From the NCBI GenBank assembly GCA_016926625.1, contig JAFGOE010000125.1, positions 21,341-85,340 of the forward strand: a DNA stretch of 64,000 nucleotides, read 5' to 3'. The stretch is from Candidatus Zhuqueibacterota bacterium. GTDB lineage: Bacteria > Zhuqueibacterota > Zhuqueibacteria > Thermofontimicrobiales > Thiofontviventaceae. The notes beneath the pieces were generated by a model. The model ran no database searches. It saw nothing but the letters and a program-made list of their open reading frames with translations, and was not told where the DNA came from. Both the position numbers and the translations under genes were made by a program. Positions 29,983-62,507 of the stretch are shown here, piece after piece. Each line of letters starts with the position of its first letter. The first letter of the stretch is position 1.

Positions 29983-30015
29983 TTTTCAGGTTTTGGGTGA
30001 TCTTGTTCTAAGATT

Positions 30016-31068: not shown

Positions 31069-31075
31069 CGATCAC

Positions 31076-31888: not shown

Positions 31889-31892
31889 CGAG

Positions 31893-32528
31893 TTATCCGA
31901 TCTTTAATCCCGAGAATCCGAGGAAGGCTATGGACATCAATCCGGCCATGATAAATGCGATAGGAATACCTTTCAACGCTTCAGGAATTGGCGCCAATTC
32001 CAGTCGCTCTCTGATCCCTGCCATTAAAATCAAGGCCAGCGTGAAACCCACTCCGGCCGAGAAACCATGTACGATACTCTCGATAAACGAATAGTTTAGA
32101 TCGAGGTTTAGAATGGTGACGCCTAATATGGCGCAATTCGTCGTAATCAAAGGCAGATAAATACCGAGCGAACGATACAAACCGGGACTCAGCTTTTGGA
32201 TCACCATTTCCACGAACTGCACCAACGCTGCGATCACCAGTATGAAAGCGATTGTTTTCAGAAACATAAGATCAGGGGGTTCTTTTGCCGAAAACAGGTG
32301 ATAGAATAGGTTTGAGGGACTGGGCTTGAGCAAAAAATTATTGATCAGCCAGGTGGCCATCGATGCCAGGGTCATCACAAAGACGACGGCAAATCCCATT
32401 CCGATCGCGGAATCTATTTTCTTAGACACCCCAATGTAGGGGCAGATTCCGAGAAAGCGTGACAGAACGAAATTATTAATGAAGATCGATGAGATTGCGA
32501 TTATGAATAGACTTTTAACTTCCATCAT
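31893..32528 (-). CDS. rnfA: Rnf electron-transport complex subunit A
   Basis: The RnfA/NqrE family pattern is NNFVLSRFLGICPYIGVS...AIGMG. Confidence 0.8.
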   Translation of the reverse strand: MMEVKSLFIIAISSIFINNFVLSRFLGICPYIGVSKKIDSAIGMGFAVVFVMTLASMATWLINNFLLKPSPSNLFYHLFSAKEPPDLMFLKTIAFILVIAALVQFVEMVIQKLSPGLYRSLGIYLPLITTNCAILGVTILNLDLNYSFIESIVHGFSAGVGFTLALILMAGIRERLELAPIPEALKGIPIAFIMAGLMSIAFLGFSGLKIG

Positions 32529-32549
32529 GTTCCTCCGATACCGGCCATG

Positions 32550-33146
32550 CTATTTCTTCGTTTTTTTATCAATCCAATTAAAGAATCCCAGGTACAGGCC
32601 TAATGTAAGGAAGGCACCTGGAGGTAGAATGAGTATTAAAACAGGTTCAAAACCAGAGCCAAATACTGGCACACCCCACAATTTCCCATCCCCGAGCAGC
32701 TCTCTGGTCACTCCGAGAAGAGTCAGCGCCAGCATAAATCCGATCCCCATACCTAAACCGTCCAATAGAGAATAGAAAACAGAATTTTTGCCGGCGAATG
32801 CTTCCGCACGACCGAGTATGATACAGTTGACGACGATAAGCGGAACGAAGATTCCGAGAGATTTATGCAGATCTGGAGCGAACCCTGCCATGGCGAGATC
32901 CACGATCGTCACGAACGTGGCGATCACGACGATATAGATCGGGATTCTGATCTTTTTCGGAACCATATTGCGAATGAGGGAAATGATCACATTGGAGCAA
33001 ACGAGCACAAACGTAGCCGCTGCTCCCATCCCAATGGCGTTTTGCACGGAATTTGAAACAGCGAGAGTCGGACATAATCCTAAAACCAACCGGAATACAG
33101 GATTCTCCGCATAAAAGCCCTTGAAAAATTCTTTTGTCATCGACAT
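32550..33146 (-). CDS. rnfE: Rnf electron-transport complex subunit E
   Basis: The RnfE/NqrD family pattern is NPVFRLVLGLCPTLAVSNSVQNAIGMG. Confidence 0.8.
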   Translation of the reverse strand: MSMTKEFFKGFYAENPVFRLVLGLCPTLAVSNSVQNAIGMGAAATFVLVCSNVIISLIRNMVPKKIRIPIYIVVIATFVTIVDLAMAGFAPDLHKSLGIFVPLIVVNCIILGRAEAFAGKNSVFYSLLDGLGMGIGFMLALTLLGVTRELLGDGKLWGVPVFGSGFEPVLILILPPGAFLTLGLYLGFFNWIDKKTKK

Positions 33147-33160
33147 GTTTAAGTTCCTCT

Positions 33161-33748
33161 CTATTCCTTAACGGCTTCTTCGGCTTTTTGAAGGTGTTCT
33201 TTCAATACGTTCAATGCATCTCTGATCGAGTTCGTGACAGCGCGCGAGGAAATAGTCGCCCCTGTAATCGCTTTAATATTCCCACCATCCTGCTCTACCG
33301 CGAGGTCCTCTGGTGTTTTGCCCAAGAATTGTACCTGAAACCAGGGTTTTTCCTCACCATAGCGTATCTCTTCTATTTTTGTACCCAGGCCTGGTGTCTC
33401 CACCTGATGCAAAACGGTCAGCCCGATGATGGCGCCTGCTGTATCGACGCCGACCATGGTCTCGATCTCACTGGAATAGCCCTGTCCTTTCGCCACGATC
33501 GCGTAACCGACAAGTTCATTCTTTTCGGGTGTTTTATATCCTTTGTAGTACTCGACTTCAGAGCTGTCGACTTTAACGATCGCGTCTTTATGTGCCAGGG
33601 GAAGAGCAATTTTTAAGGCGTTTTCAATGACGAGTTTCTTTTGTTCATCAATTTTTGGTTTAGTAACAGAATTTACCATCGCCAGAGCGGCTGCCGCGAT
33701 AACGGTGACCAATAACAGGATACCACCTAATTTAATAATATCTTTCAT
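33161..33748 (-). CDS. rnfG: Rnf complex subunit G (FMN-binding)
   Basis: There is an N-terminal TM helix. The FMN-attachment site is TGATISSRAV. Confidence 0.75.
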   Translation of the reverse strand: MKDIIKLGGILLLVTVIAAAALAMVNSVTKPKIDEQKKLVIENALKIALPLAHKDAIVKVDSSEVEYYKGYKTPEKNELVGYAIVAKGQGYSSEIETMVGVDTAGAIIGLTVLHQVETPGLGTKIEEIRYGEEKPWFQVQFLGKTPEDLAVEQDGGNIKAITGATISSRAVTNSIRDALNVLKEHLQKAEEAVKE

Positions 33749-34785
33749 TTTTTTTTGACCTCGCCAAATACTTTAGGTTTCGAGTAACGATCAATTAACG
33801 GTACAGTTAAATTCATTAATAAGATTGAATATGAAACGCCTTCGGGATAACCTCCGACGAGTCGGATCAATACAGTGATGACGCCGCAACCCACACCGAA
33901 TATGATTCGTCCTTTATAAGTTACCGGAGAGGTGACCATATCCGTTGCCATGTAGAACGCCCCCAGAATCAAACCTCCGGCCAGAACATGGAAAATCGGA
34001 TCTCCTGAGAAAAGTCCCTCCGTCCCGCCGAAAATCCAGGAGAGAAGGGCGACGGTCCCGATGTAACTCAGAGGAATTTTGAGGCTAATATATCGTTTAT
34101 AAATCAGGAATAATGCTCCAAGCAATAGTAGCAGTACGGAGGTTTCACCGATACAGCCACCTATTCTACCGAAAAACAGATTGCTATAGGCGTCGGAAAG
34201 TTGGGAGAGCACCTCACCAGGAGGAACGATATCGTTTGTATCGGTGATTAAATTAGCGTTCGTGGCGATTGCGGTTTTCGCCTGTCGGAACACGTTCAGC
34301 GGCGTTGCAGAGGTGATAATGTCGATACCGGAGAGGGTTCCACCCCGGGGTATGGTTTTAAAGATGGTCATGTGAGTCGGCCATGACGCCAGCAAAAATG
34401 CTCTTCCTAACAAAGCAGGATTCATGGGATTATATCCCAATCCACCGAACACCACCTTCCCGATGCTGATAGCAAACACAGATCCGATCATCGGAATCCA
34501 CCATGGAACTTCGGCCGGGACATTAAAAGCGAGAAGCAAACCGGTCAGCATAGCGCTACCGTCGGAGATAGTGATTGGTTTCTTTAATAACTTTTCTAGA
34601 ACAGCCTCGGTAAGGACGGCGGATACCATTCCGATCAGCATGACCCATAACGCTCGTTGTCCGAAAAAATATATCGCTCCGATCGCTGCCGGGACCAATG
34701 ATAATGTAACGGAATACATTATCCTGGGGATCGATTCACGATCCGTAATATGTGGAGAAGAAGAAACGAAAAATCTATTTTCCAT
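33745..34785 (-). CDS. rnfD: Rnf complex subunit D
   Basis: The product is polytopic. The RnfD/NqrB N-terminus is SSSPHI and the site ...GGYPEGVSYSIL is present. Confidence 0.85.
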   Translation of the reverse strand: MENRFFVSSSPHITDRESIPRIMYSVTLSLVPAAIGAIYFFGQRALWVMLIGMVSAVLTEAVLEKLLKKPITISDGSAMLTGLLLAFNVPAEVPWWIPMIGSVFAISIGKVVFGGLGYNPMNPALLGRAFLLASWPTHMTIFKTIPRGGTLSGIDIITSATPLNVFRQAKTAIATNANLITDTNDIVPPGEVLSQLSDAYSNLFFGRIGGCIGETSVLLLLLGALFLIYKRYISLKIPLSYIGTVALLSWIFGGTEGLFSGDPIFHVLAGGLILGAFYMATDMVTSPVTYKGRIIFGVGCGVITVLIRLVGGYPEGVSYSILLMNLTVPLIDRYSKPKVFGEVKKK

Positions 34786-34842
34786 GCATCTGCTTCCTTA
34801 TAAATTTTCGCTCGAATGAATAAATTCAGATTTTCGATTCGA

Positions 34843-36174
34843 TTAAGCTGCTTCTTTTCGCATCTTATTTACTTTTAATTTACCATATTTAAACAGATGA
34901 ACGTGTCTAATCTTTGAGGGGCACACGTAAGAACAGCACCCGCATTCGATGCAATCGAGTATATTGTTTTCTGCTGCTTCCTCATATTTTTGATGTTCCA
35001 CGAGCTGTGCCAATATATTCGGCATCAGGTTCATCGGGCAGGAGTCCACGCAGCGCGCGCATCGAATGCACGGTTTCGACTCCGGCATAGAGGCGTCCTT
35101 CCTGTTCAGGACGACGATGCCCGAGGTCCCCTTCGTTATAGGCGCTTCAAGGTCGGCCTGGGCAATTCCCATCATCGGACCGCCATTGATCACCTTGGCA
35201 GCATCATCGGTGAGTCCGCCACAGAATTCAAACAGATTAGCCATTGGGGTACCGATGCGCGTCAGTACGTTCGCTGGTTCCCTGATGCCTTTACCCGTAA
35301 CGCTCACGACCCGTTCATAGAGTGGCTTATTCATGGCGACAGCTTCGTAAATAGCCCTGGCAGTTCCGGTGTTCTGCACAAGACAGCCGACGTCCATGGG
35401 CAACCCTCCTGCAGGTACCTTGCGGTCGGTTACGGCTTTAATCAACTGTTTTTCCGCGCCCTGTGGATATTTTACATGAAGTCCGATCACGCTGATCGAA
35501 TCGCCTTGCTGTTTAATCAGTTTCCGCAGCGTCTTGATGGCTTCCGGTTTGTTCTTTTCGATCGCGATGTAGCCCTGTTTGCAATCCAAAATTTTCATTA
35601 AAATTCTCATCCCGGCCAGGACTTCATCACCGTGTTCGATCATCACCCGTGCGTCTGAGGTTAGATACGGTTCACACTCAGCGCCGTTGAGAATGAGTAT
35701 ATCGATCTTCTTGGGTGGCGGAGGTGACAATTTTACATGGGTTGGGAACGCAGCTCCCCCCATCCCCGCGATTCCGGCTTCAAGAATTTTCTTCTTCATT
35801 TCCGATACGGATAGATCAAAGTAATTCTCGTTCAGTTTGATCTCCGGAACTAACTCTTCTTCACCCTCTGTTTCGATGATAATGGACAGGATGTTGCCTC
35901 CGAGAGGATGAGGTCGAGGTTCTATGCTCTTCACCACGCCGGTGACCGATGAATGTGCTGGTACCGACACGAATCCTTTCGCATCGCATACCTTTTGTCC
36001 GGTCAGCACTCTCTGTCCCGGTTCTACACAAGGAGTTCCCGGAGCGCCGATGTGTTGCTGCACCGGAATAATGATATAAGGAGGAACAGGCATTTTTTCG
36101 ATCGCCTTTTTTTCCGCCAATTCTTTCTTTCCGGGCGGATGAACACCGCCTTTGAATGACAATCTTCTAAACAA
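34843..36174 (-). CDS. rnfC: Rnf complex subunit C (NADH-binding, two [4Fe-4S] ferredoxin motifs)
   Basis: The N-terminus is FKGGVHPP and the two ferredoxin clusters are CIRCARCVDSCP and CIECGCCSYVCPS. The start is TTG (GAGG SD 8 nt upstream); an in-frame stop lies just upstream. Confidence 0.85.
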   Translation of the reverse strand: MFRRLSFKGGVHPPGKKELAEKKAIEKMPVPPYIIIPVQQHIGAPGTPCVEPGQRVLTGQKVCDAKGFVSVPAHSSVTGVVKSIEPRPHPLGGNILSIIIETEGEEELVPEIKLNENYFDLSVSEMKKKILEAGIAGMGGAAFPTHVKLSPPPPKKIDILILNGAECEPYLTSDARVMIEHGDEVLAGMRILMKILDCKQGYIAIEKNKPEAIKTLRKLIKQQGDSISVIGLHVKYPQGAEKQLIKAVTDRKVPAGGLPMDVGCLVQNTGTARAIYEAVAMNKPLYERVVSVTGKGIREPANVLTRIGTPMANLFEFCGGLTDDAAKVINGGPMMGIAQADLEAPITKGTSGIVVLNRKDASMPESKPCIRCARCVDSCPMNLMPNILAQLVEHQKYEEAAENNILDCIECGCCSYVCPSKIRHVHLFKYGKLKVNKMRKEAA

Positions 36175-36197
36175 ATCTGCACCTCTCTCTCAACATT

Positions 36198-36250
36198 AAA
36201 AAAAATGCAGGCATCGTCCATAAGAATGCTTGAAATGAGTTTGCCTGCAT
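36198..36250 (-). terminator. Hairpin plus U-run on the minus strand immediately after nrdR and abutting the rnfC RBS (terminator/attenuator-like)
   Basis: On the minus strand, ATGCAGGCA-(28-nt loop)-TGCCTGCAT is followed by TTTTTTTT. The U-run ends about 20 nt before the rnfC start. Confidence 0.4.
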
Positions 36251-36286
36251 AAATGACAGTAATCGTATTTCATGGATCGTCAAATT

Positions 36287-36730
36287 TTAGAGATCTTTTA
36301 ACTCTGATAGAAATTCTTCTTTATCCTGAAAATTCAGATAAACCGATGCGAACCGTAGATAGGCGACCTTGTCTAGTTTTTTCAGATAGTGCATGACCAG
36401 GTTTCCGATTTCTCTTGAATTGATCTCCTCAGTGAACTTTTCTCTGAGTTGAAATTCAACTTTCGAAGCGATCTCATCGATCGTTTCACTCGATATCGGC
36501 CGCTTTGAACATGCAAGACGTATACCGCTAATTAATTTCTCTGAACTGAACGGCTCCCGTCTCTTGTCAGCCTTGACAACGATGAGCGGTGATTGCTCTA
36601 AATATTCTTTCGTTGTAAACCGCCGCTTACACGCCAGGCACTCCCGACGACGACGAATGACGGTCCCATCACTTTTCATCCGAGAATCGACAACCTTACT
36701 ATCTCTGTAGTTACAGTATGGACATTTCAT
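36287..36730 (-). CDS. nrdR: Transcriptional repressor NrdR (Zn-ribbon plus ATP-cone)
   Basis: MKCPYCNYRDSKVVDSR...CLACKRRFTT is the zinc ribbon. An ATP-cone follows. Confidence 0.9.
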   Translation of the reverse strand: MKCPYCNYRDSKVVDSRMKSDGTVIRRRRECLACKRRFTTKEYLEQSPLIVVKADKRREPFSSEKLISGIRLACSKRPISSETIDEIASKVEFQLREKFTEEINSREIGNLVMHYLKKLDKVAYLRFASVYLNFQDKEEFLSELKDL

Positions 36731-36755
36731 AGCAGTCCTTATTCAATAAAATTTA

Positions 36756-38042
36756 TTAAAAATTTGGATATAAGGGGAATTTTTTACAAAGGTCTGTTAC
36801 ATCCGCCCGTACCTGGTCGATAACGGCTTTATTCTCTTTATTGGTTATCACGCGATCGATTAATTCAGCGATAATCTTTATCTCCGGCTCTTTCATTCCG
36901 CGTGTCGTCATGGCCGGCGTACCGATTCGAATTCCGCTCGTAGTAAACGGACTCTGATCATCGAATGGAACCATGTTTTTGTTGACGGTAATTCCAGCTT
37001 CTTCCAGAATTCTCTCCGCTTCTTTACCCGTCACCCCCTTGTTTCTTAGATCGATCAACATCAAGTGCGTATCCGTACCACCGGATATGATATGATAATC
37101 CTTTTTGAGTAACTCATCGGCCAATGTTTTTGCATTCGTGATGACCTGTTTCGAATAGTCAATAAAATCAGGCTGTAGTGCTTCTTTGAAAGCGACCGCC
37201 TTGGCTGCGATCACATGCATCAACGGTCCACCCTGAAATCCCGGGAAAACACTGGAATCGATGAGTTGTGAAACAGTCTTGAGTTTCCCTTTTGGGGTCT
37301 TCAATCCCATATCGTTTTCTTCATCTTTTCCGATCAAGATCATCCCCCCTCGCGGCCCTCTCAACGTTTTATGCGTCGTTGTCGTCACGGCATGACAGTA
37401 GGGGATGGGACTCCCAATGAGTCCTGACGCAATTAATCCGGCAGGATGAGCCATATCGGCTATTAATTTTGCACCGACTTTATCCGCGATGCTGCGGAAC
37501 GACTCGTAGTCTATCTCTCTGCTATACGCACTGGCGCCTGTGATAATAAGCCGAGGTCGTTCCTTTAAGGCTAAATGCTCGACCTGATTCATGTCGATAT
37601 AGCCGGATTGATCCACCCCGTAGGATATGATATTAAAAAATTTGCCCGAAAAATTGACCGGACTCCCATGTGTCAGGTGACCGCCATGGTCAAGATTCAT
37701 GCCCATGACGGTATCTCCAAAGCTGGCGAAAGTAAAATAGGCCGCAATATTCGCTTGCGAACCAGAATGAGGCTGCACATTAGCATGCTCCGCCTTAAAA
37801 AGTGCTTTCGCACGTTCGCGGGCCAGCTCTTCTGCTACATCGACAAACACACAACCACCGTAATAACGTTTGCCAGGATATCCTTCCGCATATTTGTTGG
37901 TCATGACGTGTCCCATAGCCTCCAGAACCGCAAGGCTCACAAAGTTCTCAGAGGCGATGAGTTCCAATTTATCGTTTTGACGGGATACTTCGTTTGTAAT
38001 CGCCTGGTAGACTTCTAAATCAGTCGCTTGCAAATATTTCAT
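36756..38042 (-). CDS. glyA: Serine hydroxymethyltransferase
   Basis: The PLP-lysine region is [14 protein letters not shown], and both the N-terminus and C-terminus are canonical for SHMT. The start was moved to MKYLQ (ATG verified at 38042). Confidence 0.95.
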
Positions 38043-38185
38043 TATGAAAATCCTCTCGCTGCAGGTTGCTTGCATCAAACCCTACGGTTTCACCCTTTTC
38101 AACGTTCTGGTTCGTGCACGATTACGGTGTGATCATCGGAAGAGTGAATATGTTCCGAACAACGCATTGCCCCCTTCAGACATTG

Positions 38186-52463: not shown

Positions 52464-52492
52464 TTGACATTCGATTGCCATTCATTTATATT
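52464..52492 (+). promoter_or_regulatory. Consensus promoter TTGACA-N17-TATATT about 190 nt upstream of the sensor gene
   Basis: The -35 hexamer is perfect and the spacer is 17 nt. The promoter is followed by a long untranslated leader that contains an 18-codon ORF (MEIASFKSISSSFCTASG). Confidence 0.35.
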
Positions 52493-52681: not shown

Positions 52682-54784
52682 ATGGTACTTAAACACACAG
52701 AAAAATATCTAAATATCATACCGATAGCAGCGCTGTCGCTCGTACTGGTGATTGATATCATCTCGTTTCTGCGTCGCAGCGTGATCATGATGGTTCCATA
52801 CATCAGAGAGCTTCTCATCGTGCTTGGCATTCTGTGTGTGATATTCATGATATACCAGACGAGATGGCTGAGGGGGAAAACGATCCTGGCAAAGGTCAAA
52901 CTGTTAGCCGTGACCATTGTGGGGCTTTACATCGGATATTTTTTACCCAAAATAGTCCTCTTAAGCGGATTTGAGATGGGACAAACAGGAACCACGGGAT
53001 ATTTTTCATCTTTAAATGTACTGATCTATTCGACACTGACATCGCTCAGCGTGACTTTCTTATGCATCATCGCTTTGCACTTGTTAGGTTACCTGATTTA
53101 TATCAAGCGCAGGAAAACAACGCATCGAAATTTTCTATTTACGATCATCATCATGGCAGGCCAATTTCTTTATCTGCAAGGGATCAGCGTTGCCGGATCG
53201 AAACCCGTTTCATTATCTGCAGGCGGTCCGATCGGTGCGATTTTATTAATCAGCCTGATCGTATCGTTTGTCATCAATTCATCTCGCAATTCCTGGATCT
53301 ATTTTTTTAACCGCAGCCAAAAGATCGCTCTGTTTTTTGCCGGATTTCTGCTTGTACCGATCTCTTACGGTCTCGTTAACATCCCCTTAAATCAGGTGAT
53401 CGCAGCCTACAGTCCTTCTCTGGGAATCTTAACGATGCAAACCTCACTGTTTATTTTTATTTATTTGGTCATTGCTGAGCTCATTTTATTGTTTCACCTG
53501 CCTACTGCGGGCTTGTATGATAAAAAGACCAGGGAGATCAGTACATATCACCAGTTGAGCCGTTCGATATCAATGGAATTTAATCCTGATAAGGTCGTCG
53601 ATCAGATCACTCAGCAATCATTAAGCGTCATTGATGCCGATGCGAACTGGTTAGAATTGATCGACCATGAAACAGGGAAGCTTGAGATTGTCTCTTCGAA
53701 TCGCATACCTGACTCAGATCGGGATATTTTGAAGGCGACGGAGAACGATCAAATCGCATTATGGATTATAAAAAACAAGCGGCATATTCTGATCAACGAC
53801 ATAAGTAAAGACGAAAAAGCAGCTGTATTCCGAACTCTCGATAGCAATATTGCTTCACTCGTTGCGGTCCCTCTCATATCGTATGAGAAGTTATTAGGAA
53901 TTTTATTTGCGGTCAAATATGAACAATACGGGTTCGCTGATGAGCACGTGGATACACTGCAGGCGTTCGCCGATCAAGCGGCCATCGCTTTGGAAAACGC
54001 CAGACTTGTCCGCGAATCGATCGAGAAAGAGCGGCTGGAGCAAGAACTAAAAATTGCACATGATGCGCAGATGAAATTACTCCCGAAATCCATGCCCCGT
54101 CTTTCCAATTATCAAATCGAAGCAATCTGCGTGACCGCTAATGAAGTCGGTGGAGATTATTACGATTTCTTTCAGCTATCGAAGGATAAACTAGGAATTG
54201 TCATTGGGGATGTCTCCGGCAAAGGACCGGAAGCAGCTTTTCATATGGCTGAGATTAAAGGTGTCATCGAATCGCTATCGCACATCTATGAATCACCGAT
54301 GGAGATCCTGATCAGGACGAACAAGATTATCTATGAAAATCTTGATCCTGACATGTTTATTACATTGAGCTACGGGATACTGGATACGAAGACGAATACT
54401 CTCAAATTCTCCAGAGCAGGACATTGTCCGCTCATTCATTATGTATACGATGAAGACGAGGTCAGATTAATCGAACCACACGGTATCGGTGTAGGGCTTG
54501 AAAAGGGTGATCTATTTACCAGGAATATCGAAGAAATTCAAATCAAAATACAGCCTGCTGATATACTTCTTTTCTATACTGACGGTATCGTCGAAGCGCA
54601 AAACACGAGTCAAGAAGAATTCGGAGAAGAACGTTTGCAATTAAAAGTAAAGCAATTAAAAGACGAGACCGCTTCCGACATGATGAGGAAAATTATCCAG
54701 TCGATACAATCGTTCGCCGGTTCTGCGAAACCGCACGACGATTTAAGCATGGTGATCGTTAAACAAAATCATCACTTAAGATGA
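52682..54784 (+). CDS. Membrane sensor: polytopic (about 8-10 TM) N-domain, GAF, then PP2C/SpoIIE-type Ser/Thr phosphatase
   Basis: The N-terminal 270 aa are hydrophobic helices. The GAF-like middle region follows. The PP2C region includes GDYYDFF...GDVSGKGPEAAFHMAEIKG...YTDGIVEA. Confidence 0.75.
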   Translation: MVLKHTEKYLNIIPIAALSLVLVIDIISFLRRSVIMMVPYIRELLIVLGILCVIFMIYQTRWLRGKTILAKVKLLAVTIVGLYIGYFLPKIVLLSGFEMGQTGTTGYFSSLNVLIYSTLTSLSVTFLCIIALHLLGYLIYIKRRKTTHRNFLFTIIIMAGQFLYLQGISVAGSKPVSLSAGGPIGAILLISLIVSFVINSSRNSWIYFFNRSQKIALFFAGFLLVPISYGLVNIPLNQVIAAYSPSLGILTMQTSLFIFIYLVIAELILLFHLPTAGLYDKKTREISTYHQLSRSISMEFNPDKVVDQITQQSLSVIDADANWLELIDHETGKLEIVSSNRIPDSDRDILKATENDQIALWIIKNKRHILINDISKDEKAAVFRTLDSNIASLVAVPLISYEKLLGILFAVKYEQYGFADEHVDTLQAFADQAAIALENARLVRESIEKERLEQELKIAHDAQMKLLPKSMPRLSNYQIEAICVTANEVGGDYYDFFQLSKDKLGIVIGDVSGKGPEAAFHMAEIKGVIESLSHIYESPMEILIRTNKIIYENLDPDMFITLSYGILDTKTNTLKFSRAGHCPLIHYVYDEDEVRLIEPHGIGVGLEKGDLFTRNIEEIQIKIQPADILLFYTDGIVEAQNTSQEEFGEERLQLKVKQLKDETASDMMRKIIQSIQSFAGSAKPHDDLSMVIVKQNHHLR

Positions 54785-54793
54785 AAAAAAACA

Positions 54794-54822
54794 TTGACAA
54801 AGTTCATGATGTTTATTATATT
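54794..54822 (+). promoter_or_regulatory. Consensus promoter TTGACA-N17-TATATT driving the aromatic-operon leader
   Basis: The -35 hexamer is perfect and the spacer is 17 nt. It shares the 10-mer TTGACAAAGT with the gatC promoter. Confidence 0.45.
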
Positions 54823-54869
54823 ATAGTCATCGTGTTATGGTCTTTACGCTAACCAGGGGTAAATTCACG

Positions 54870-54950
54870 ATGCATATCCTCAGCATAACCTATACAATAT
54901 TCTATTATTATTATTTTCTATCCGCGTTACGCAGCAGGAGTTCGGACTAA
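54870..54950 (+). CDS. Tyr/Phe-rich leader peptide (26 aa: MHILSITYTIFYYYYFLSALRSRSSD)
   Basis: The ATG lies 10 nt after GGGG. There are four consecutive Tyr codons flanked by Phe. It is located between the promoter and an intrinsic terminator directly upstream of the chorismate mutase/DAHPS/tyrA operon. Confidence 0.5.
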   Translation: MHILSITYTIFYYYYFLSALRSRSSD

Positions 54951-54982
54951 CGTTAGATAAAGCATTCTAAATAAAGTAAATG

Positions 54983-55014
54983 AACCCGCTGCCTGAGAAA
55001 GCGGGTTTTTTTTT
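54983..55014 (+). terminator. Intrinsic terminator (attenuator) 12 nt upstream of the chorismate mutase start
   Basis: AACCCGC-(11-nt loop)-GCGGGTT is followed by nine T. The SD sequence GAGG and the CM ATG follow immediately. Confidence 0.55.
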
Positions 55015-55026
55015 GAGGTCACTGCC

Positions 55027-55317
55027 ATGGAGTTAGAAAATTTAAGGGAAGCGATCAACGAAATCGACAGAGAATTGGTCGTGTTATTGAACAAAAGAGC
55101 AGACCTTGCCCTGCGGATCGGTAAAATCAAATTGCTTCATCGGATGCCGATTCACGACATGGCGCGGGAACTGATTGTGCTGGAAAATATCACTTCGGCA
55201 AACAATGGGCCTCTAAAAGATCTGCAGCTGAGAACGATATTTAAAACAATTATGAGTTCGTGCCGTGAAGTACAAAATCATTTAGGGGAGCAATATGATT
55301 ATCGTAATGAAGAATGA
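55027..55317 (+). CDS. Chorismate mutase (AroQ class)
   Basis: The size is 96 aa. The sequence LENLREAINEIDRELVVLLNKRADLALRIGKIK matches the AroQ helical CM. Confidence 0.85.
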   Translation: MELENLREAINEIDRELVVLLNKRADLALRIGKIKLLHRMPIHDMARELIVLENITSANNGPLKDLQLRTIFKTIMSSCREVQNHLGEQYDYRNEE

Positions 55318-56308
55318 CGCCTCAGAGGCGCAAATTAAGGCTGTCGCTGATAAGTTAGTTGATTTGGGATTAAAGGTACATCGAAGCGATGGTGAAGCCA
55401 GAACGATCATCGGTGCTATCGGGGACACCTCCAAGGTCGATGATATCGTCATCAAGTATATGGCCGGTGTTCTCAATGTGGTGCGCATTATTGAACCGTA
55501 CAAATTAGCGAGTCGCAATTTTCATGAAGATTCCAGCGTAGTCGAGATCGGAGATATCAGGATCGGTGCTGAAAAAGTGATCATCATTGCTGGGCCCTGC
55601 GCTGTGGAATCCGAAGATCAGGTCACGGAAATAGCGAAGTTAATTAAGGAAGCGGGCGCATCGATATTGAGAGGCGGAGCTTTTAAACCCCGATCATCAC
55701 CCTATTCATTTCAGGGATTGGGAGAACAGGGTTTAAAATTACTGCACGCCGCGGGTAAACAATACGAATTACCTGTCGTCTCTGAAATTTTAGAAGCCTC
55801 TCATATTGAGCTGATGGATCAATATGTGGATATCTATCAGGTCGGTGCGAGGAACATGCAAAACTTCTGGTTGTTACGGGAATTGAGTAAGATCAGAAAA
55901 CCCGTGCTGTTAAAACGTGGCATGGCTGCGACCATCGAAGAATTGTTGATGGCAGCCGAGTACCTGATGTCGGGTGGAAATTATAATGTTATCCTGTGCG
56001 AGCGCGGCATAAGGACCTTCGAGAATTACACTCGAAACACGATGGATATCTCCGCGATCCCTGTAGTCAAAAAACTAAGCCATCTCCCGATTATCGCCGA
56101 TCCGAGTCATGGGACAGGGATACGCGATCATGTGGCACCGATGGCCAGAGCCGCAGTTGCAGCCGGTGCCGACGGCCTGATGATCGAGGTCCACAACAAT
56201 CCCGCCGCCGCTCTCTCGGATGGGCCGCAATCTTTGCTCCCGAATCAATTTAAAATGCTCATGGAGGAGTTAAAAATTATCTCATGGGCTATCGGAAGGT
56301 CGGTGTAG
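55295..56308 (+). CDS. aroF: 3-deoxy-7-phosphoheptulonate (DAHP) synthase, class I-beta, with N-terminal ferredoxin-like regulatory domain
   Basis: The catalytic core ([13 protein letters not shown]...[13 protein letters not shown]...IADPSHGTG) is of KDO8PS-like I-beta type. The N-terminal extension of about 70 aa resembles the Thermotoga-type FL/ACT domain. The gene overlaps the CM gene by 23 nt. Confidence 0.85.
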
Positions 56309-56310
56309 AC

Positions 56311-57414
56311 ATGAGCGATGTATCGAAAATAACAATCATCGGACTGGGTCTCATCGGAGGATCGCTGGGACTTGCATTATCCAATAAAAAAGAATACGAT
56401 AGAATCTACGGAATCGATGAATTTTCCGTGGTTCACCACGCCATGGAACGCGGCATCATAGATCAGGGATTTACACCGGAGGATAGCGAAACAGCCTTAC
56501 GAGACTGTGACCTGGTCTTCCTCTGCACACCCATTTACACCATTCTCGACTACCTGAAAACGATAACGAAATGGATACGACCAGGGACAGTGGTCTGCGA
56601 CGTCGGCAGCACAAAGGGTCAAATCGTCAATGCAGCGAATCAATATTTTAACGATGCATCGGTTTATTTTCTGGGGACTCACCCAATGGCCGGCGCTGAA
56701 ACCCGAGGCATCGAAGCGGCGGATGCCTATCTGTTTGAAAACATCGTATGGGTGTTGACTCCATTTCAAAAAATTCCTGACCAGAAAATCAGGGACATCG
56801 GAACAATTCTGGAATCGATTGGTGCAAAAGTATTGTTACTCTCACCGGAACTGCACGATAAGATTGCTGCTGCCGTGAGTCATTTGCCGCAGATGGCCGC
56901 GATCGCTTTGACCAATCTAATATCAAGACTGCAACAGGAAAACATGAACTACATCCGACTCGCTGCAGGAGGATTCCGTGATATGACCCGTATCGCATCC
57001 AGCCCTTACTCTGTTTGGAAAGACATCTGCGGAACCAACAAAGAACAAATCGCTTTCTTTATCGATCAGTTCATCGATGAATTAAAGAGAGTGAAAGAGC
57101 ATGTGCTGAACGATAAACTCGAGCCTGATTTTGAAAACTCGAACGTGACACGCCTCTCTATTCCGCGCGACACCAGAGGATTTCTGAAACCTGCTTACGA
57201 TGTCTCGATTGGCGTGCAGGACAAGCCGGGCGTCATTGCCGAAATCAGCACCGCGCTGGCGAACGAAGGCATCAACATCAAGGACATCGAGGTATTAAAA
57301 GTGCGTGAAGGTGAAGGCGGAACATTCCGCATGTCATTTTCGAGCAGCTCCGATAGAGACTGGGCAATTGGTATCATCCGTCATATCGGTTATTCATGTT
57401 ATGCACGTGATTAA
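56311..57414 (+). CDS. tyrA: Prephenate dehydrogenase with C-terminal ACT domain
   Basis: The NAD fold is ITIIGLGLIGGSLGLAL. The ACT domain is VSIGVQDKPGVIAEISTALANEGINIKDI. Confidence 0.85.
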   Translation: MSDVSKITIIGLGLIGGSLGLALSNKKEYDRIYGIDEFSVVHHAMERGIIDQGFTPEDSETALRDCDLVFLCTPIYTILDYLKTITKWIRPGTVVCDVGSTKGQIVNAANQYFNDASVYFLGTHPMAGAETRGIEAADAYLFENIVWVLTPFQKIPDQKIRDIGTILESIGAKVLLLSPELHDKIAAAVSHLPQMAAIALTNLISRLQQENMNYIRLAAGGFRDMTRIASSPYSVWKDICGTNKEQIAFFIDQFIDELKRVKEHVLNDKLEPDFENSNVTRLSIPRDTRGFLKPAYDVSIGVQDKPGVIAEISTALANEGINIKDIEVLKVREGEGGTFRMSFSSSSDRDWAIGIIRHIGYSCYARD

Positions 57415-57428
57415 ATCAGGGAATATGA

Positions 57429-58736
57429 ATGAACATTTCATTATCACCATGTTTTAATTTATCCGGTATCATATCGATGAACGGTGATAAATCGATCTCT
57501 CATCGGGCGTTGATGTTTGGCGCAATCGCTCAGAGTGTAACACATATCACTAATTTATCAACCAGCGAAGATGTGAGCAGTACGGAACGATGTCTCAAAC
57601 AATTAGGGATTAAGATCGTGAGACAGGAAGGGGTAACCATGGTCCACGGAGTGGGTCTTCGCGGATTCCAAAGACCGTTACGACCCCTGGATGCAGGGAA
57701 TTCAGGTACTACCATGCGGCTGCTGACTGGATTACTCGTGGGGCAGGATTTTGATGCGATATTGACGGGTGATGAATCACTACGGAAACGGCCGATGAAA
57801 CGCATTTTAGAACCCTTATCTCGCATGGGTGCGTCGATTAAGGCGACAACGGGGAATTTCGCACCGCTGAATATTCACGGATCTCCGATCTTTTCAACGA
57901 CCTATACCATGCCCATCGCCAGCGCACAGGTAAAATCCTGTCTGCTGATGGCGGCGTTATATGCCAGAGGAGTGACAACGATCCATGAAAATGCCGCGAC
58001 ACGAAATCATACAGAACTCATGTTAGCAGATTTCAACGTTAAAATCGACGTCGAAGCTCATCGCATCTCGATCAAGGGCGATCAACAACTGTTAGCAAAT
58101 GATATTGCGGTTCCTGGTGATGTCTCCTCGGCCTCATTTTTCCTCGCCGCGGCGCTACTTACTCCGAACTCAACGGTGACCATCAGAAATGTGGGACTCA
58201 ATCCGACGCGTCTTGGATTCATCAGAGTGCTGCAAAAGATGGGCGCCCAGATCGTTATCAATCCTGTCATCAGTAATCAACAGGAGCCTTTTGGAGATAT
58301 CACTGTCCGAACCTCCCCCTTGCGAAGCATCACCCTGACGGCGGAAACTATTCCCTCCCTCATCGATGAACTGCCCATTTTCGCCATTATCGCTTCGCAG
58401 GCTAAAGGAGTTACCACAGTCACCGGTGCGAAAGAGCTGCGATTTAAAGAGAGCGATCGTTTGAGAGCTATATCGCATAATTTGAAACAAATGGGAGTCG
58501 AGATTAATGAGTTGGACGATGGTTTTATCATCTATGGGATACAACAATTAAAAGGTGCCCATATCGATTCATATCATGATCATCGTATCGCCATGGCGTT
58601 TTCGGTTGCGGCACTCATAGCGTCTGGCGTGACCACGATTCACGATGCTGAATGTATATCGATATCTATGCCCGAATTCTTTCAGGTGATGGATTCGATC
58701 ATTCAGAATTCGAATTATTATACGACTATTGTATAA
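57429..58736 (+). CDS. aroA: 3-phosphoshikimate 1-carboxyvinyltransferase (EPSP synthase)
   Basis: GDKSISHRALMFGAIAQ is the EPSPS N-terminal motif. LDAGNSGTTMRLL and RPM are also present. Confidence 0.9.
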   Translation: MNISLSPCFNLSGIISMNGDKSISHRALMFGAIAQSVTHITNLSTSEDVSSTERCLKQLGIKIVRQEGVTMVHGVGLRGFQRPLRPLDAGNSGTTMRLLTGLLVGQDFDAILTGDESLRKRPMKRILEPLSRMGASIKATTGNFAPLNIHGSPIFSTTYTMPIASAQVKSCLLMAALYARGVTTIHENAATRNHTELMLADFNVKIDVEAHRISIKGDQQLLANDIAVPGDVSSASFFLAAALLTPNSTVTIRNVGLNPTRLGFIRVLQKMGAQIVINPVISNQQEPFGDITVRTSPLRSITLTAETIPSLIDELPIFAIIASQAKGVTTVTGAKELRFKESDRLRAISHNLKQMGVEINELDDGFIIYGIQQLKGAHIDSYHDHRIAMAFSVAALIASGVTTIHDAECISISMPEFFQVMDSIIQNSNYYTTIV

Positions 58737-58753
58737 CAAGAAATAGGAATGAT

Positions 58754-59614
58754 ATGCTAAAATTTGCCATTATAGGAGATCCCGTGGCGCATTCGCTGTC
58801 GCCTCTGATGCATTCATCGTTCTATGATTATTATCGCATTGATGCTGATTACAACGCCATTCTGGTTAAACCGAACGATTTAAAGGAATTTCTGCAAAAT
58901 CTCAGGGACAGCGATTATCTGGGGATCAACGTCACAATTCCACATAAAGAGAGTGTCATCCCTTTTCTTGATGCTGTGAGTAAAGAGGCGCAAACGATAG
59001 GAGCTGTGAATTGTATCCTTAGAAGAAATGGGAAACTGATAGGTTATAACACGGATATGAGCGGCTTCGAAGCGAGTCTGCCGGTTTCAATGTATGGAGA
59101 AAAGACAGTAATCATCGGAGCAGGAGGTGCAGCACGTTCCATCTTGACCGCCTGCATCAACGCTGGTTCCCAGCAGATCGTCATCTTTAACCGCACACCA
59201 GAGAAAGCGGAGAAATTGAGAACGGAGTTCTCAGGGAAGTTTCCTCATACCGTACTTAAAGCTTATGCACTGGCTGATCCGATACTAAAATCGGAATTAT
59301 CACAAGCCAGTCTACTCATCAACGCGACATCGTCTGGAATGGAACCCGACTCTGATGAAAGACTGCCGCTGCGACCGGAGGATCTGCATCAGGGAATTTT
59401 CGTATACGATGTCGTTTATACCCCACCGACAACGGATCTGATCAAAATCGCTATTCAAGCCGGGGTCAGCTATTTAAATGGACTCGATATGCTGATACAC
59501 CAGGGGCTGGAGTCGTTAAAAATTTGGTTAAATCATGAATTACCGTTCCAAAAATCGCTGATAAAACGAACAAAATCCGAATTGATGAGTAAATTATTAG
59601 ATAATAACTCGTGA
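58754..59614 (+). CDS. aroE: Shikimate dehydrogenase
   Basis: The N-terminus is FAIIGDPVAHSLSPLMH and the NADP site is GAGGAARS. The start was moved to MLKF (ATG 58754). Confidence 0.9.
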   Translation: MLKFAIIGDPVAHSLSPLMHSSFYDYYRIDADYNAILVKPNDLKEFLQNLRDSDYLGINVTIPHKESVIPFLDAVSKEAQTIGAVNCILRRNGKLIGYNTDMSGFEASLPVSMYGEKTVIIGAGGAARSILTACINAGSQQIVIFNRTPEKAEKLRTEFSGKFPHTVLKAYALADPILKSELSQASLLINATSSGMEPDSDERLPLRPEDLHQGIFVYDVVYTPPTTDLIKIAIQAGVSYLNGLDMLIHQGLESLKIWLNHELPFQKSLIKRTKSELMSKLLDNNS

Positions 59615-59636: not shown

Positions 59637-60182
59637 ATGCAACTACAAACCCACATCTTTTTAATCGGCTTTATGGGATGCGGCAAGACAACAATTGGTA
59701 AAGATCTTGCGGTTAAATTTAATGTTCAGTTTATCGATACAGACGTAATCATTTCTGAGAAAACAAATCTCTCAATACCGGATATATTTGAGAAATGGGG
59801 AGAAAGTAAATTCAGAGAAATCGAAACACAGGTCATTGGGTCTATCGTCGCGCTTCCCCCATCCATCATATCATTAGGTGGAGGAGCTATTTTATCGGAA
59901 CAAAACCGTTCTGTCATTTTCAATTCGGGTCTGTCGATTTACCTCAAATGGCGAGTAAAAACGCTTTTCAAACGGCTGGCTGATTGTGATAGCAGACCGC
60001 TTTTAAGCAATATCCCTCAATCCAAATTGCTCGAACAGATCATGAGCATGATGAACGAACGATCAAAATATTATGAGCGCGCGCACATTGTCATACCCGG
60101 AGATCGATATAAAAATATTAATCTTTTGATTGAACACATAATTCATGAAATCTCAACCTATAAAATTCCAACGATCCGTTAA
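59637..60182 (+). CDS. aroK: Shikimate kinase
   Basis: The P-loop is IFLIGFMGCGKTTIGKDLA. The size is 181 aa. Confidence 0.9.
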   Translation: MQLQTHIFLIGFMGCGKTTIGKDLAVKFNVQFIDTDVIISEKTNLSIPDIFEKWGESKFREIETQVIGSIVALPPSIISLGGGAILSEQNRSVIFNSGLSIYLKWRVKTLFKRLADCDSRPLLSNIPQSKLLEQIMSMMNERSKYYERAHIVIPGDRYKNINLLIEHIIHEISTYKIPTIR

Positions 60183-61251
60183 TCTAAAGACGAAAAGCTA
60201 TCCCGTCTATATCGGGAGCAATTCAACCACGAAACTATCTCCTCTGCTCACTACTCACGGAATCGAAAACCGTATAATTATCATCACCGACGATATTGTG
60301 GAAGGTCTCTATGGGAATCGATTATTAGAACAGTTAAGCGCTGACCACTACGAGGTCTCTATCTATTCTTTTCCAAACGGTGAACGCTCTAAATTTAGTA
60401 TCACGGTTGAACAGATTTATTCCTGGATGTTAGAGAACAACTGCAAACGCGACGTCACGATCATTGCACTGGGCGGCGGCGTGGTCGGTGATATTGCAGG
60501 ATTCGTTGCGGCGACCTTCATGAGAGGCGTACGTTATGTTCAAATTCCGACGACCCTGCTCGCGCAGGTCGATAGCAGTGTCGGCGGCAAGGTTGGAATC
60601 AATCATGAGCTTAGCAAAAACGTCATCGGTGCGTTTTATCACCCCCTGTTCGTGCTTATCGATCCTGCCGTGCTCAGCACGCTGAACCAACGTGAGATCA
60701 CATGTGGTCTTGGAGAGGTAATAAAATACGGACTTATTAAAGACATTGATCTATTCGTGGAACTCGAGGCACATTTGTATGATCTTTATGAATCAGACAA
60801 TCAACGTTGGATCGAAAAAATTATCTATCAGTGTTGCTCTATCAAAGCAGACATCGTCGAGCAAGACGAGCAGGAGAGCGGTATCAGACGTATTTTAAAT
60901 TTCGGGCATACGATCGGACATGCACTGGAAGCGGCGACAGGTTATGATTATCTCAATCACGGGGAGTCAATATTGTATGGAATGCTATCCGCATCCTATG
61001 TGGCACATCGGTTGAACTACCTGCAACGTCATGAATTCGAGCGTATCCTCCGGGTGCTCGCATTGATTGACAAGCCCCCTCTGCCTGACGATCTGACTGA
61101 GGACATGCTGATGCAACGGGTTAGACATGACAAAAAACAACAGGAATCAGGACTCCATTTCGTGTTATTGGATCGCATCGGACATGCGAAAATTGAATTA
61201 GTATCCGATCAGCTGGTACGCAGCGGCATTGCTCATCTCCTTCACAGTTAA
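60145..61251 (+). CDS. aroB: 3-dehydroquinate synthase
   Basis: The NAD site is GGGVVGDIAGF. The metal site is ...GHTIGHALE. Confidence 0.9.
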   Translation: MKSQPIKFQRSVNLKTKSYPVYIGSNSTTKLSPLLTTHGIENRIIIITDDIVEGLYGNRLLEQLSADHYEVSIYSFPNGERSKFSITVEQIYSWMLENNCKRDVTIIALGGGVVGDIAGFVAATFMRGVRYVQIPTTLLAQVDSSVGGKVGINHELSKNVIGAFYHPLFVLIDPAVLSTLNQREITCGLGEVIKYGLIKDIDLFVELEAHLYDLYESDNQRWIEKIIYQCCSIKADIVEQDEQESGIRRILNFGHTIGHALEAATGYDYLNHGESILYGMLSASYVAHRLNYLQRHEFERILRVLALIDKPPLPDDLTEDMLMQRVRHDKKQQESGLHFVLLDRIGHAKIELVSDQLVRSGIAHLLHS

Positions 61252-62507
61252 TCTGTCCTGCCTTTCCAGGCTCGTAAGCTACGAATCCGTTCCACCACGG
61301 GCGGGTGTGAATAATAAAATTTAGCGAAAAAGGGATGCGGATGCAGATTCGACAAATTATCCTTTGATAATTTAATTAGTGCACTGGCAAGCGGCTCAGG
61401 ATCACCAATTAACTCACACGCGAATCGATCGGCCTCACGTTCATGTTTTCTGGAAATATAGGCACTGAGCGGTGTGAAGGGGAATGATACAATTCCTAAG
61501 ACAAAACTCAGTAACATAATTTTTACGAAAAATGTTGAATCTGAAATTTGGAATGTTTCTATCAGGATATCTGATTTTAAGATCCGAAATGCCAGATATA
61601 TACCGGCAAAGCCTATCAGTTCCGATATAATGATCGTCTTCAGGATATGTTTCTTCTTCCAATGACCGGCTTCATGAGCCAATACCGAGATAATCTCATC
61701 ATGATTCATCTTCTGTAATAACGTATCAAACAAGACAATGCGTTTTACTTTGCCGATACCCGTAAAATATGCGTTCGTATGCCTGCTCCGTTTCGATGCA
61801 TCGATCTTGAAAACGCGACTCACCTTTAATCCTGCTTTTTCCATGACGTTCTTGATTTTGTCCTCCAACCCCTCTTCTTCGGTGATGGGGGTAAATTTAT
61901 TGAACAGAGGTTCGATGACGTACGGGGAGATATACATTAAAAACAGGCTGAAGATCAGGAAAAATGCCCATACCCAGAGCCACCAACTATCCGGGAAACT
62001 CTGGATCAACCACAAACCGATGGAACCGATAATGCCCATCAGGATCACAGAGATGATGAACGATTTAAGCAAATCGATGAGCCATAGTTTAAATGTCTTC
62101 GTGTTAAAACCGTATTTGTTTTCGATCTTGAATGTTTCATAAAGATCGAACGGGATATCGAGTATTGTGGATATAAAACTTAACAGGATAAAATAAACGA
62201 GTCCTTTTAATATGAAGCAAATCGTAAATCCATGAATCCACGTGTTATACATATCCAGCAGTCCACCGAAGATAAATAATAACAGGATCACATTATCGAA
62301 GATGGAAGAGATGTATCCGAAACGACTGTGTTCGACGGTGTAGTCGCGTGTCTTTTTCAGCAGCCCGGCATCGATATATCCATCAAATTCAGGCGGAATA
62401 GTCGCCCCATGTTTTTTGAGATACTTCAAGTTCAGAAATTTTAGATAGTAACTGAATGAAACGATTATCAGATATAGAAAGAGAAGTGCGAATTGAATCC
62501 TGTTCAT
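61248..62507 (-). CDS. M48-family (Ste24/HtpX-like) membrane zinc metalloprotease
   Basis: Multiple TM helices are followed by HEAGHWKKKH (HExxH), a downstream ExxxD and the C-terminal HPP motif. Confidence 0.8.
   Translation of the reverse strand: MNRIQFALLFLYLIIVSFSYYLKFLNLKYLKKHGATIPPEFDGYIDAGLLKKTRDYTVEHSRFGYISSIFDNVILLLFIFGGLLDMYNTWIHGFTICFILKGLVYFILLSFISTILDIPFDLYETFKIENKYGFNTKTFKLWLIDLLKSFIISVILMGIIGSIGLWLIQSFPDSWWLWVWAFFLIFSLFLMYISPYVIEPLFNKFTPITEEEGLEDKIKNVMEKAGLKVSRVFKIDASKRSRHTNAYFTGIGKVKRIVLFDTLLQKMNHDEIISVLAHEAGHWKKKHILKTIIISELIGFAGIYLAFRILKSDILIETFQISDSTFFVKIMLLSFVLGIVSFPFTPLSAYISRKHEREADRFACELIGDPEPLASALIKLSKDNLSNLHPHPFFAKFYYSHPPVVERIRSLRAWKGRTD

Follow-up and report, generated by a model that had tools for sequence, protein, structure and literature searches.

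In Escherichia coli the pheL-pheA, trpL, hisL and thrL systems share one layout: a promoter, an open reading frame (ORF) with codons for the end product, and an antiterminator that overlaps a terminator before the first gene. The position of the ribosome selects between the two structures. Here we describe the same layout at positions 54794 to 55026 of the window, our name for the whole 64,000-nucleotide (nt) stretch of DNA analysed, which comes from a Candidatus Zhuqueibacterota (KSB1) bacterium. It stands in front of an operon for chorismate mutase (CM), DAHP synthase (DAHPS), tyrA and aroAEKB. Very probably, judging from its sequence and from folding models, the element is a ribosome-mediated leader-peptide attenuator that makes expression of this operon depend on how much charged tRNA-Tyr and tRNA-Phe is available.

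The closest functional precedent, compared by description, is aroR of Corynebacterium glutamicum. There a Phe-Tyr-Phe leader is reported to control the aroF (DAHP synthase) operon by ribosome stalling (Neshat et al. 2014, via PMC11802643). As at the KSB1 locus, a mixed Phe/Tyr leader precedes a DAHP synthase operon. Attenuators before tyrA/aro supraoperons have been predicted in the Merino database, where they are given without leader ORFs (Table 7 of PMC1173090), and leader-peptide candidates have been inferred in Flavobacterium (PMC9723704). Leader peptides outside Proteobacteria and Actinobacteria were held to be unusual in 2010 (PMC2965389). The aromatic operons of Firmicutes carry Tyr/Phe T-box leaders (PMC2494555).

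The leader and its alternative structures

The whole leader lies in a 242-nt intergenic gap between a GAF-SpoIIE phosphatase gene (52682-54784) and the chorismate mutase gene (55027-55317). Its parts are as follows:

54794-54799, forward strand: -35 hexamer TTGACA, from the promoter scan; ATTGACAA is invariant in the five closest relatives
54817-54822, forward strand: -10 hexamer TATATT after a 17-nt spacer, from the promoter scan; invariant in the five closest relatives
54855-54859, forward strand: Shine-Dalgarno-like AGGGG, 10 nt 5' of the leader ATG; its GG aligns with the GGAG of relatives
54870-54950, forward strand: leader ORF of 26 codons plus TAA (54948-54950), from the sequence and the ORF list, with the peptide MHILSITYTIFYYYYFLSALRSRSSD
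54900-54917, forward strand: regulatory codons TTC TAT TAT TAT TAT TTT (F-Y-Y-Y-Y-F)
54922-54927, forward strand: CCGCGU, predicted to pair with AGCGGG (55000-55005) in the full-length fold and to extend the antiterminated state
54931-54948, forward strand: predicted antiterminator 5' strand, GCAGC-A-GG-A-GUUCG-G-ACU, within the last six sense codons and the first base of the stop codon
54953-54970, forward strand: small predicted hairpin UUAGA/UCUAA inside the antiterminator loop; its sequence is not conserved
54975-54992, forward strand: predicted antiterminator 3' strand, of which 54981-54992 (UGAACCCGCUGC) holds the terminator 5' arm
54982-55008, forward strand: intrinsic terminator hairpin (ViennaRNA), core ACCCGCU (54984-54990)/AGCGGGU (55000-55006) with a 9-nt loop
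55006-55014, forward strand: T9 tract of the terminator; all members have a T-run of 5-10
55015-55018, forward strand: GAGG, the Shine-Dalgarno sequence of the chorismate mutase gene

The promoter (54794-54822) agrees with the sigma-70 consensus at 11 of 12 positions. Its -10 hexamer places the probable transcription start at about 54829. A promoter scan from 54823 to the operon found no promoter-like site, and hence none between the terminator and the operon. The T-run is followed by exactly 12 nt (55015-55026, with GAGG inside) before the chorismate mutase ATG at 55027. Because this gap is so short and no promoter-like site follows the terminator, the operon should be expressed only by terminator read-through.

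The aromatic codons stand out from their surroundings. FYYYYF is the sole run of at least five aromatic codons in all six frames of the window. Dinucleotide-preserving shuffles yield 0.03 aromatic runs of at least six per window, and Tyr and Phe each account for about 4% of the codons in the window's genes. An in-frame ATG at 54837, 33 nt further 5', would make a 37-amino-acid (aa) leader. It lies about 8 nt from the probable transcription start, has no Shine-Dalgarno sequence and is not conserved.

Taken singly, the other parts are unremarkable. Across 52-64 kb, promoter-like and terminator-like consensus matches are no commoner than in shuffles. Such matches are not enriched generally, and thus our argument rests on the combination of the parts, on their position and above all on their conservation.

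The terminator core consists of 7 bp, 5 of them G-C; A-U and G-U pairs extend the stem to 54982 and 55008. The hairpin has a predicted energy of -14.2 kcal/mol (ViennaRNA). The minimum free energy (MFE) fold of the full leader is not this terminator. It is the long-range helix between 54931-54948 and 54975-54992, and the antiterminated state is predicted at -28 to -30 kcal/mol, against -14.2 kcal/mol for the terminator alone. The terminator 5' arm segment is shared by both structures; hence antiterminator and terminator are mutually exclusive. When the transcript ends before the 3' terminator arm, the antiterminator is predicted to engage 8 of the 8 core bases of the 5' arm. Two of 300 shuffles of the intervening sequence equal the antiterminator in both pairing and energy.

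A further pairing appears in the full-length MFE fold. Positions 54878-54883 (CCUCAG, leader codons 3-5) pair with 55013-55018 (UUGAGG), a segment that contains the Shine-Dalgarno sequence of chorismate mutase. This predicted pairing could be a translational layer of control, or it could be incidental.

To model translation, the ribosome was represented as a 30-nt footprint slid along the leader; a model that masks everything 5' of the ribosome was dropped as too generous. With no ribosome, or with the A site on codons 1-16 (that is, through the aromatic run), the antiterminator keeps all 8 core bases. As the A site moves over codons 17-20, it falls to 6 and then 4 of the 8. One core base is left with the A site on codons 21-24, three on codons 25-26 and one when the ribosome sits on the stop codon. 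In the footprint model, this predicted dependence on ribosome position is the behaviour required by attenuation.

A first-pass annotation of this DNA had pointed out most of these parts, and they are where it placed them: the 26-codon ORF with four Tyr codons between Phe codons, and the terminator of a 7-bp stem plus T9 that ends 12 nt before chorismate mutase. The annotation's alternative pairing, of GCAGCAGG with the terminator arm, does form as part of the predicted MFE fold. TTGACA-N17-TATATT is also present, but the promoter had been called perfect and is better described as near-consensus. The annotation had named a transcription start downstream of the terminator, seen in transcriptomics, as a refutation; the promoter scan found no promoter-like site there. 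It had also suggested a search for pause, antiterminator and terminator structures. An exclusive antiterminator and terminator that respond to the modelled ribosome are predicted, whereas a pause hairpin is not.

Conservation and covariation in relatives

Relatives were collected by DAHP synthase scans of a species-level genome collection and of metagenomes, and by a protein search with contig look-ups. The species-level collection holds no DAHP synthase above 64% identity; it does hold several such loci with the same layout. In total, 13 distinct relatives have this layout in front of the same operon; their DAHP synthases range from 89% to about 62% identity. Those relatives that carry a name are KSB1/Zhuqueibacterota. 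They include the following (locus, DAHP synthase identity, leader):

L164/L165, 89%: MHSISLIYFIIHFYYRMTMLCSGNATNY
L166 (= L082), 82%: MLNFGIKYITFYYYRISRICSGNTPSF
L167, 75%: MRQKIATLFYYEYYYRLRCSGMYFFI
L168, 73%: MLFREFTYFFNVNFYYFYYSSHNGSSRRHSTF
L169, 66%, KSB1: MNSFTATFFYYFYFCFSSARSSGAMVFS
L171, 66%, KSB1: MNLFYNNIFYFFAIHSGRR
L084, 67%: MIYYFYNYFYLAVPGSGRK
L002, 64%: MNYYFAKYYFFYFSWSKGMD
L006, 63%, KSB1: ...DYSGFYFYADSRSSGKG
L011 (= L105, L106), 62%: ...RYYESYFYFASFGSGGMD
L012, 63%: MLTYLSEKYFYFTSCGRYERT

All of these loci carry a -35 of TTGAC type and a -10 of TATATT type 5' of the leader, and a GC hairpin with a T-run 3' of it. CM-DAHPS-TyrA(-AroA) comes next in nearly all. The GAF-SpoIIE neighbour is kept in the four closest distinct relatives (L164-L167). 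At L167 (1284-1500, the relative with 75% identity), the chorismate mutase gene is missing and the attenuator lies directly 5' of DAHP synthase.

What is conserved in the five closest relatives is confined to the -35, the -10, the Shine-Dalgarno sequence, the aromatic codons, GCAG[CU][AG]GG, AACCCGCTGC and AGCGGG with the T-run; the sequence between them has diverged. The leader ATG and GG(AG) are conserved in relatives, and a hairpin of variable sequence recurs within the antiterminator loop. The Tyr/Phe cluster occupies the same place in 13 of 13 relatives. Tyr and Phe are kept while TAT alternates with TAC and TTT with TTC, and the remaining peptide varies freely. Hence selection at this place appears to act on codon identity, and not on the peptide or on an RNA motif.

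The antiterminator 5' strand is Shine-Dalgarno-like (GGAG or GGGAGG) in the window and in the relatives. We read the distance from the GGG of this strand to the leader stop in the window, L002, L006, L084, L170, L171, L164, L166-L169 and L012. It is 6 nt in five loci, 15 nt in six (L164, L166, L167, L168, L169 and L012) and 9 nt in the window. It is conceivable that the Shine-Dalgarno-like strand interacts with the terminating ribosome.

The helices also change in concert. A position-by-position table shows that each base of the terminator 5' arm changes jointly with both of its partners. At L012, where the 5' arm has A in place of U, the 3' arm and the antiterminator strand both have U in place of A; elsewhere, G/A at two positions of the 5' arm is answered by C/U. 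Run on truncated transcripts, RNAalifold arrives at the long-range helix independently. It mis-registered the arms on the first MAFFT alignments, and pairs were therefore counted on two other alignments: A7, a plain MAFFT alignment of 12 sequences, and A6, a hand-anchored alignment of 13 sequences that is biased towards structure.

For the terminator, 86.7% of cells are paired in A7 and 92.3% in A6. Compensatory changes occur in 4 of 10 and 6 of 9 pairs, and the covariation score is reached by 0 of 500 shuffles in either alignment. For the antiterminator, 87.5% of cells are paired in A7 (31-67% with a slid partner) and 83.7% in A6. Here 3 of 8 and 4 of 8 pairs are compensatory, and the score is reached by 6 of 500 and 4 of 500 shuffles, respectively. 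The covariation in these alignments suggests real but modest support for the antiterminator.

A covariance model, R1, was trained on 12 sequences and run against the window and 170 loci (948 kb). It recovered its training members, including a single match in the window at 54900-55016 (76.5 bits), itself a training sequence. One new member was found, L170 (44.9 bits, E = 3e-7), and there was no other match at E <= 0.1 in the 948 kb. L170 comes from a Zhuqueibacterota metagenome-assembled genome (MAG) and has TTGACA/TATATT, the leader MVIMNDQFGHHWTHRFYYFIFRSRAVGG and a terminator. Its attenuator (630-835) lies about 400 nt 5' of chorismate mutase and does not adjoin it. L170 is counted among the 13 distinct relatives that, beside the window, make up the family. 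In L170 a called 87-aa gene (708-971) spans the attenuator and is probably spurious.

Aromatic leaders also occur outside this family. Two Acidobacteriota/Terriglobia MAGs, L048 (1544-1709) and L056 (1541-1706), carry a leader MQHRFYYLYAFTYRFPYPGSG... before CM-prephenate dehydratase-DAHPS. In this leader (MQHRFYYLYAFTYRFPYPGSGPARLGRGGNQS) a protector hairpin is clear, and an antiterminator and a terminator are present as well. On an unassigned contig, L153 (2238-2423), a long leader ...YYFGFSFWGFSFFWFF... and a terminator precede DAHPS-prephenate dehydratase, and Phe and Trp dominate. In L063 and L066 (2638-2867; Anoxynatronum, Clostridia), DAHPS is preceded by a long leader with many Phe, Trp and Tyr codons and by a terminator. 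No T-box was found in L153, L063 or L066. L153 hints that the codon content of the leader follows the content of the operon. R1 matches none of the Acidobacteriota, L153 and Clostridia leaders, which look like analogous solutions, possibly of independent origin.

Other loci were set aside. Chorismate mutase was tried as a handle for finding relatives and given up: the next homologues are 42-48% identical and lie in other contexts, such as a Bacteroidota trpA-CM context (L162) and a high-GC Fibrobacter locus without a leader (L163). L023, from a Bacteroidetes MAG, has a YSYFYF ORF, but it lacks a terminator and a nearby start codon and was excluded. In many Acidobacteriota and Zixibacteria loci (L003, L008, L013, L016, L022, L097 and others), CM-DAHPS follows ORFs of about 400 and 265 aa without a gap. 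Their length suggests that these ORFs are TrpB and TrpA, and the whole a trp-aro supraoperon. These gapless loci make up most of those from Acidobacteriota and Zixibacteria; a local leader is not to be expected in them, and none was found.

A working model and its rivals

The proposed mechanism runs as follows. Transcription would begin at about 54829, and the 26-codon leader would be translated as the RNA is made. When Tyr- or Phe-tRNA is scarce, the ribosome would stall on F-Y-Y-Y-Y-F (54900-54917), with its footprint ending before 54931. The strand 54931-54948 would then be free to pair with 54975-54992 once that has been transcribed. The antiterminator would sequester the terminator 5' arm, and RNA polymerase would continue into the operon. 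When both charged tRNAs are plentiful, the ribosome would move over codons 17-26 and the stop codon (54948-54950) and cover the antiterminator strand while the terminator arms are synthesised. With the strand covered, the hairpin 54982-55008 and its T9 tract would form, and transcription would stop 12 nt before the first gene.

We observe the sequence elements, the alternative structures, their modelled dependence on ribosome position, conservation and covariation. From them we infer where transcription starts, that the leader is translated, that ribosome and polymerase are coupled and that the element responds to Tyr and Phe. The leader mixes both codon types, so sensing of both amino acids is probable. 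Ribosome-mediated attenuation had already been read from the layout by the first-pass annotation, and the exclusive structures that respond to the ribosome, their conservation and their compensatory changes bear it out. The annotation had left open whether close relatives share the parts; mini-ORF, antiterminator and terminator are kept upstream of the same operon in close and distant relatives alike.

Several points weigh against this attenuator. The leader's Shine-Dalgarno sequence is weak and its 10-nt spacing long. In the window, a hairpin of the 5' untranslated region (54826-54874, CAUCGUG...CACGAUG, -12.2 kcal/mol) is predicted to bury the leader AUG; it is specific to the window and not conserved in the four closest relatives. 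The sequence does not tell which amino acid, Tyr or Phe, is dominant, and aroR is reported in PMC11802643 to respond to Phe but not to Tyr limitation. The compensatory changes in the antiterminator are few (3-4 pairs) and depend on the alignment. The source is a MAG of an uncultured KSB1 bacterium.

Two further difficulties concern the ribosome itself. The ribosome-free window leader is predicted to fold into the antiterminator. A protector or pause hairpin (1:2) was searched for, and none is evident in the window copy; elsewhere, the 1:2 helix is represented by weak, non-conserved candidates in L164 and L166 and is clear in L084 and L048. Because a protector helix is missing, an untranslated leader is predicted to read through, unlike in E. 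coli trp. Such a hairpin belongs to the trp paradigm of E. coli more than to attenuators as a class. Secondly, in L166, L167, L168, L169 and L012 a ribosome on the stop codon leaves the antiterminator strand unmasked in the simple model, and the antiterminator is blocked only while the ribosome crosses the strand. Because of this, termination in these five must rely on timing or on something else.

These two difficulties also feed the alternative that survives best. The switch might be real while its sensor is a T-box-like element, a small-molecule riboswitch or a TRAP/PyrR-type protein, with the ORF incidental. Alternative hairpins cannot by themselves name their sensor, the antiterminator is the default fold without a ribosome, and in several relatives a ribosome at the stop codon does not mask the strand. 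However, no T-box or riboswitch matches at E <= 10 in 54600-55200, and none reaches the gathering score in the window or in 10 member loci. Beyond the helices, what is conserved is a start codon with its Shine-Dalgarno sequence and an in-frame Tyr/Phe cluster with varying synonymous codons. Between the helices, which is where one would expect the site for a ligand or a protein, the sequence is not conserved. The stop codon, moreover, always lies 6, 9 or 15 nt after the antiterminator GGG. We consider a sensor other than the ribosome quite improbable.

A ribosome that senses something more general is, in our judgement, quite improbable too. The attenuator would then report general translation capacity or how ribosome and polymerase are coupled, and the aromatic run would amount to no more than a patch that is slow to translate. 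Without a protector helix, any failure of leader translation would indeed lead to read-through, and TATTATTATTAT, the sequence of the Tyr run, is rich in A and T and low in complexity. Yet the codons match the end products of the operon, and Tyr and Phe are kept in 13 of 13 relatives while the flanks diverge. In addition, L153, which has prephenate dehydratase downstream, has a leader dominated by Phe and Trp.

It is highly improbable that we are looking at an ordinary constitutive terminator, or at the 3' end of a small transcript, next to a chance ORF, with the operon transcribed from elsewhere. Terminator-like and promoter-like matches are about as common in shuffles, as noted above. But 12 nt separate the T-run from the gene with no promoter-like site after it, and the upstream gene ends 200 nt earlier, before the conserved promoter. 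The conservation of the whole arrangement, including the competing helix, before the operon in 13 relatives argues strongly against this explanation. Equally hard to credit is the idea that the small ORF serves mainly to encode a hydrophobic micropeptide with a function of its own, as a membrane peptide or a toxin. The predicted product does have a hydrophobic, aromatic character, but neither its length (19-32 aa) nor its sequence is conserved outside the aromatic cluster, and the apparent conservation of its C-terminus (CSG, SSG, GSG) mirrors the antiterminator strand at the nucleotide level.

Ribosome-mediated attenuation thus stays our preferred reading. A broader proposal goes with it, and we advance it only tentatively, with rather more doubt than belief. 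The window copy may be the type of an uncatalogued Tyr/Phe leader family (13 of 13 relatives) with independent analogues in Acidobacteriota and Clostridia. It may also be the first attenuator built on a run of Tyr codons, with a three-strand design that has no protector and places one strand inside the ORF. Finally, the terminating ribosome might hold this strand, since the strand is Shine-Dalgarno-like and lies a fixed 6, 9 or 15 nt before the stop.

The operon and comparison with known systems

Pfam identifies the products of all seven operon genes (CM_2, DAHP synthase, TyrA-ACT, AroA, AroE, AroK and AroB), in agreement with the operon named in the first-pass annotation. The genes are closely packed or overlapping:

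55027-55317, forward strand: chorismate mutase (CM_2), first gene of the operon
55295-56308, forward strand: DAHP synthase (FXD domain and DAHP_synth_1)
56284-57414, forward strand: prephenate dehydrogenase TyrA with an ACT domain
57429-58736, forward strand: EPSP synthase AroA
58652-59614, forward strand: shikimate dehydrogenase AroE; the real start is probably 3' of 58652
59637-60182, forward strand: shikimate kinase AroK
60145-61251, forward strand: 3-dehydroquinate synthase AroB, last gene of the operon

The 3' limit of the operon is set by a convergent gene for an M48 peptidase (61248-62507). The leader region is identical in an independent Logan assembly, L001. NCBI assigns the proteins identical to those encoded here to a candidate division KSB1 bacterium.

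The rest of the window offers little of this kind. Its other intergenic regions were searched for amino-acid leaders and none was found, and the whole window contains no tRNA genes and no Rfam matches. On the minus strand, 29107-38078 carries an Rnf complex operon (31893-36174), TatC, NadA, nrdR and SHMT; an apparent 581-nt gap at 36175-36755 is the nrdR gene (36300-36730). A second TTGACA-N17-TATATT (11 of 12 positions) at 52464-52492 lies 190 nt 5' of the GAF-SpoIIE start (52682), which implies a long 5' untranslated region.

As a concrete piece of regulation, the element adds to the very little that is known of gene control in KSB1/Zhuqueibacterota, an uncultured candidate phylum. It indicates that the lineage uses sigma-70-type promoters and intrinsic terminators and, by inference, couples transcription to translation. 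A tyrosine-rich case is added to the short list of amino acids sensed through leader peptides. R1 can be used to annotate such loci, where gene callers put spurious small genes or none. Being compact (about 190 nt) and made of generic bacterial parts, the leader could be tried as a Tyr/Phe-responsive sensor in E. coli. Our understanding of attenuation itself is unchanged, and the mechanism is unsurprising.

Among catalogued RNA families, none in Rfam 15 reaches its gathering score in the whole window or in 10 member loci. The best near-match is Phe_leader (RF01859), which covers the full length of the model with 25.9 bits (E = 0.045). Against a gathering score of 55, the window element is therefore not a member of Phe_leader. 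Thr_leader (21 bits) and Trp_leader (16.5 bits) are likewise below threshold.

T-box leaders resemble the KSB1 element in that uncharged tRNA leads to antitermination, and they control the same kind of genes. In contrast, the element shows no T-box match (at E <= 10 in 54600-55200, or at the gathering score in the 10 member loci), is too short, and would sense through a translated ORF. The attenuators predicted earlier before aromatic operons share its terminator and antiterminator, and leader peptides have already been predicted in the FCB group (PMC1173090; PMC9723704). Unlike the window element, those lists contain no Tyr/Phe leader ORF, no KSB1 and no family, and none of their entries is in Rfam 15. 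From the description in PMC11802643, aroR differs in having a Phe-Tyr-Phe triplet only and in being actinobacterial.

The literature that we searched holds nothing on KSB1 attenuators and no tyrosine-run leader. The first-pass annotation, which knew of no attenuator of this kind in the lineage, is upheld to that extent; the mechanism, by comparison, is not new, as aroR already shows (PMC11802643).

Compared to the pheL/trpL class, the run of regulatory codons in the window is dominated by Tyr and not by Phe or Trp. The ORF itself contains the antiterminator 5' strand, ahead of the stop codon and not after it. With no 1:2 protector helix evident, read-through is the predicted outcome for a leader that is not translated. 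The element also belongs to another lineage, KSB1, and to a larger operon, made up of CM, DAHPS, tyrA and four shikimate genes. Around 2010, the Lyubetsky group reportedly predicted classical attenuation in several non-proteobacterial phyla. The mechanism, then, is classical, as in pheL and trpL of E. coli and aroR of Corynebacterium. The window element is very probably a well-conserved new instance of leader-peptide attenuation, distinctive in its Tyr-rich sensor, in an antiterminator strand inside the ORF and in doing without a protector helix.

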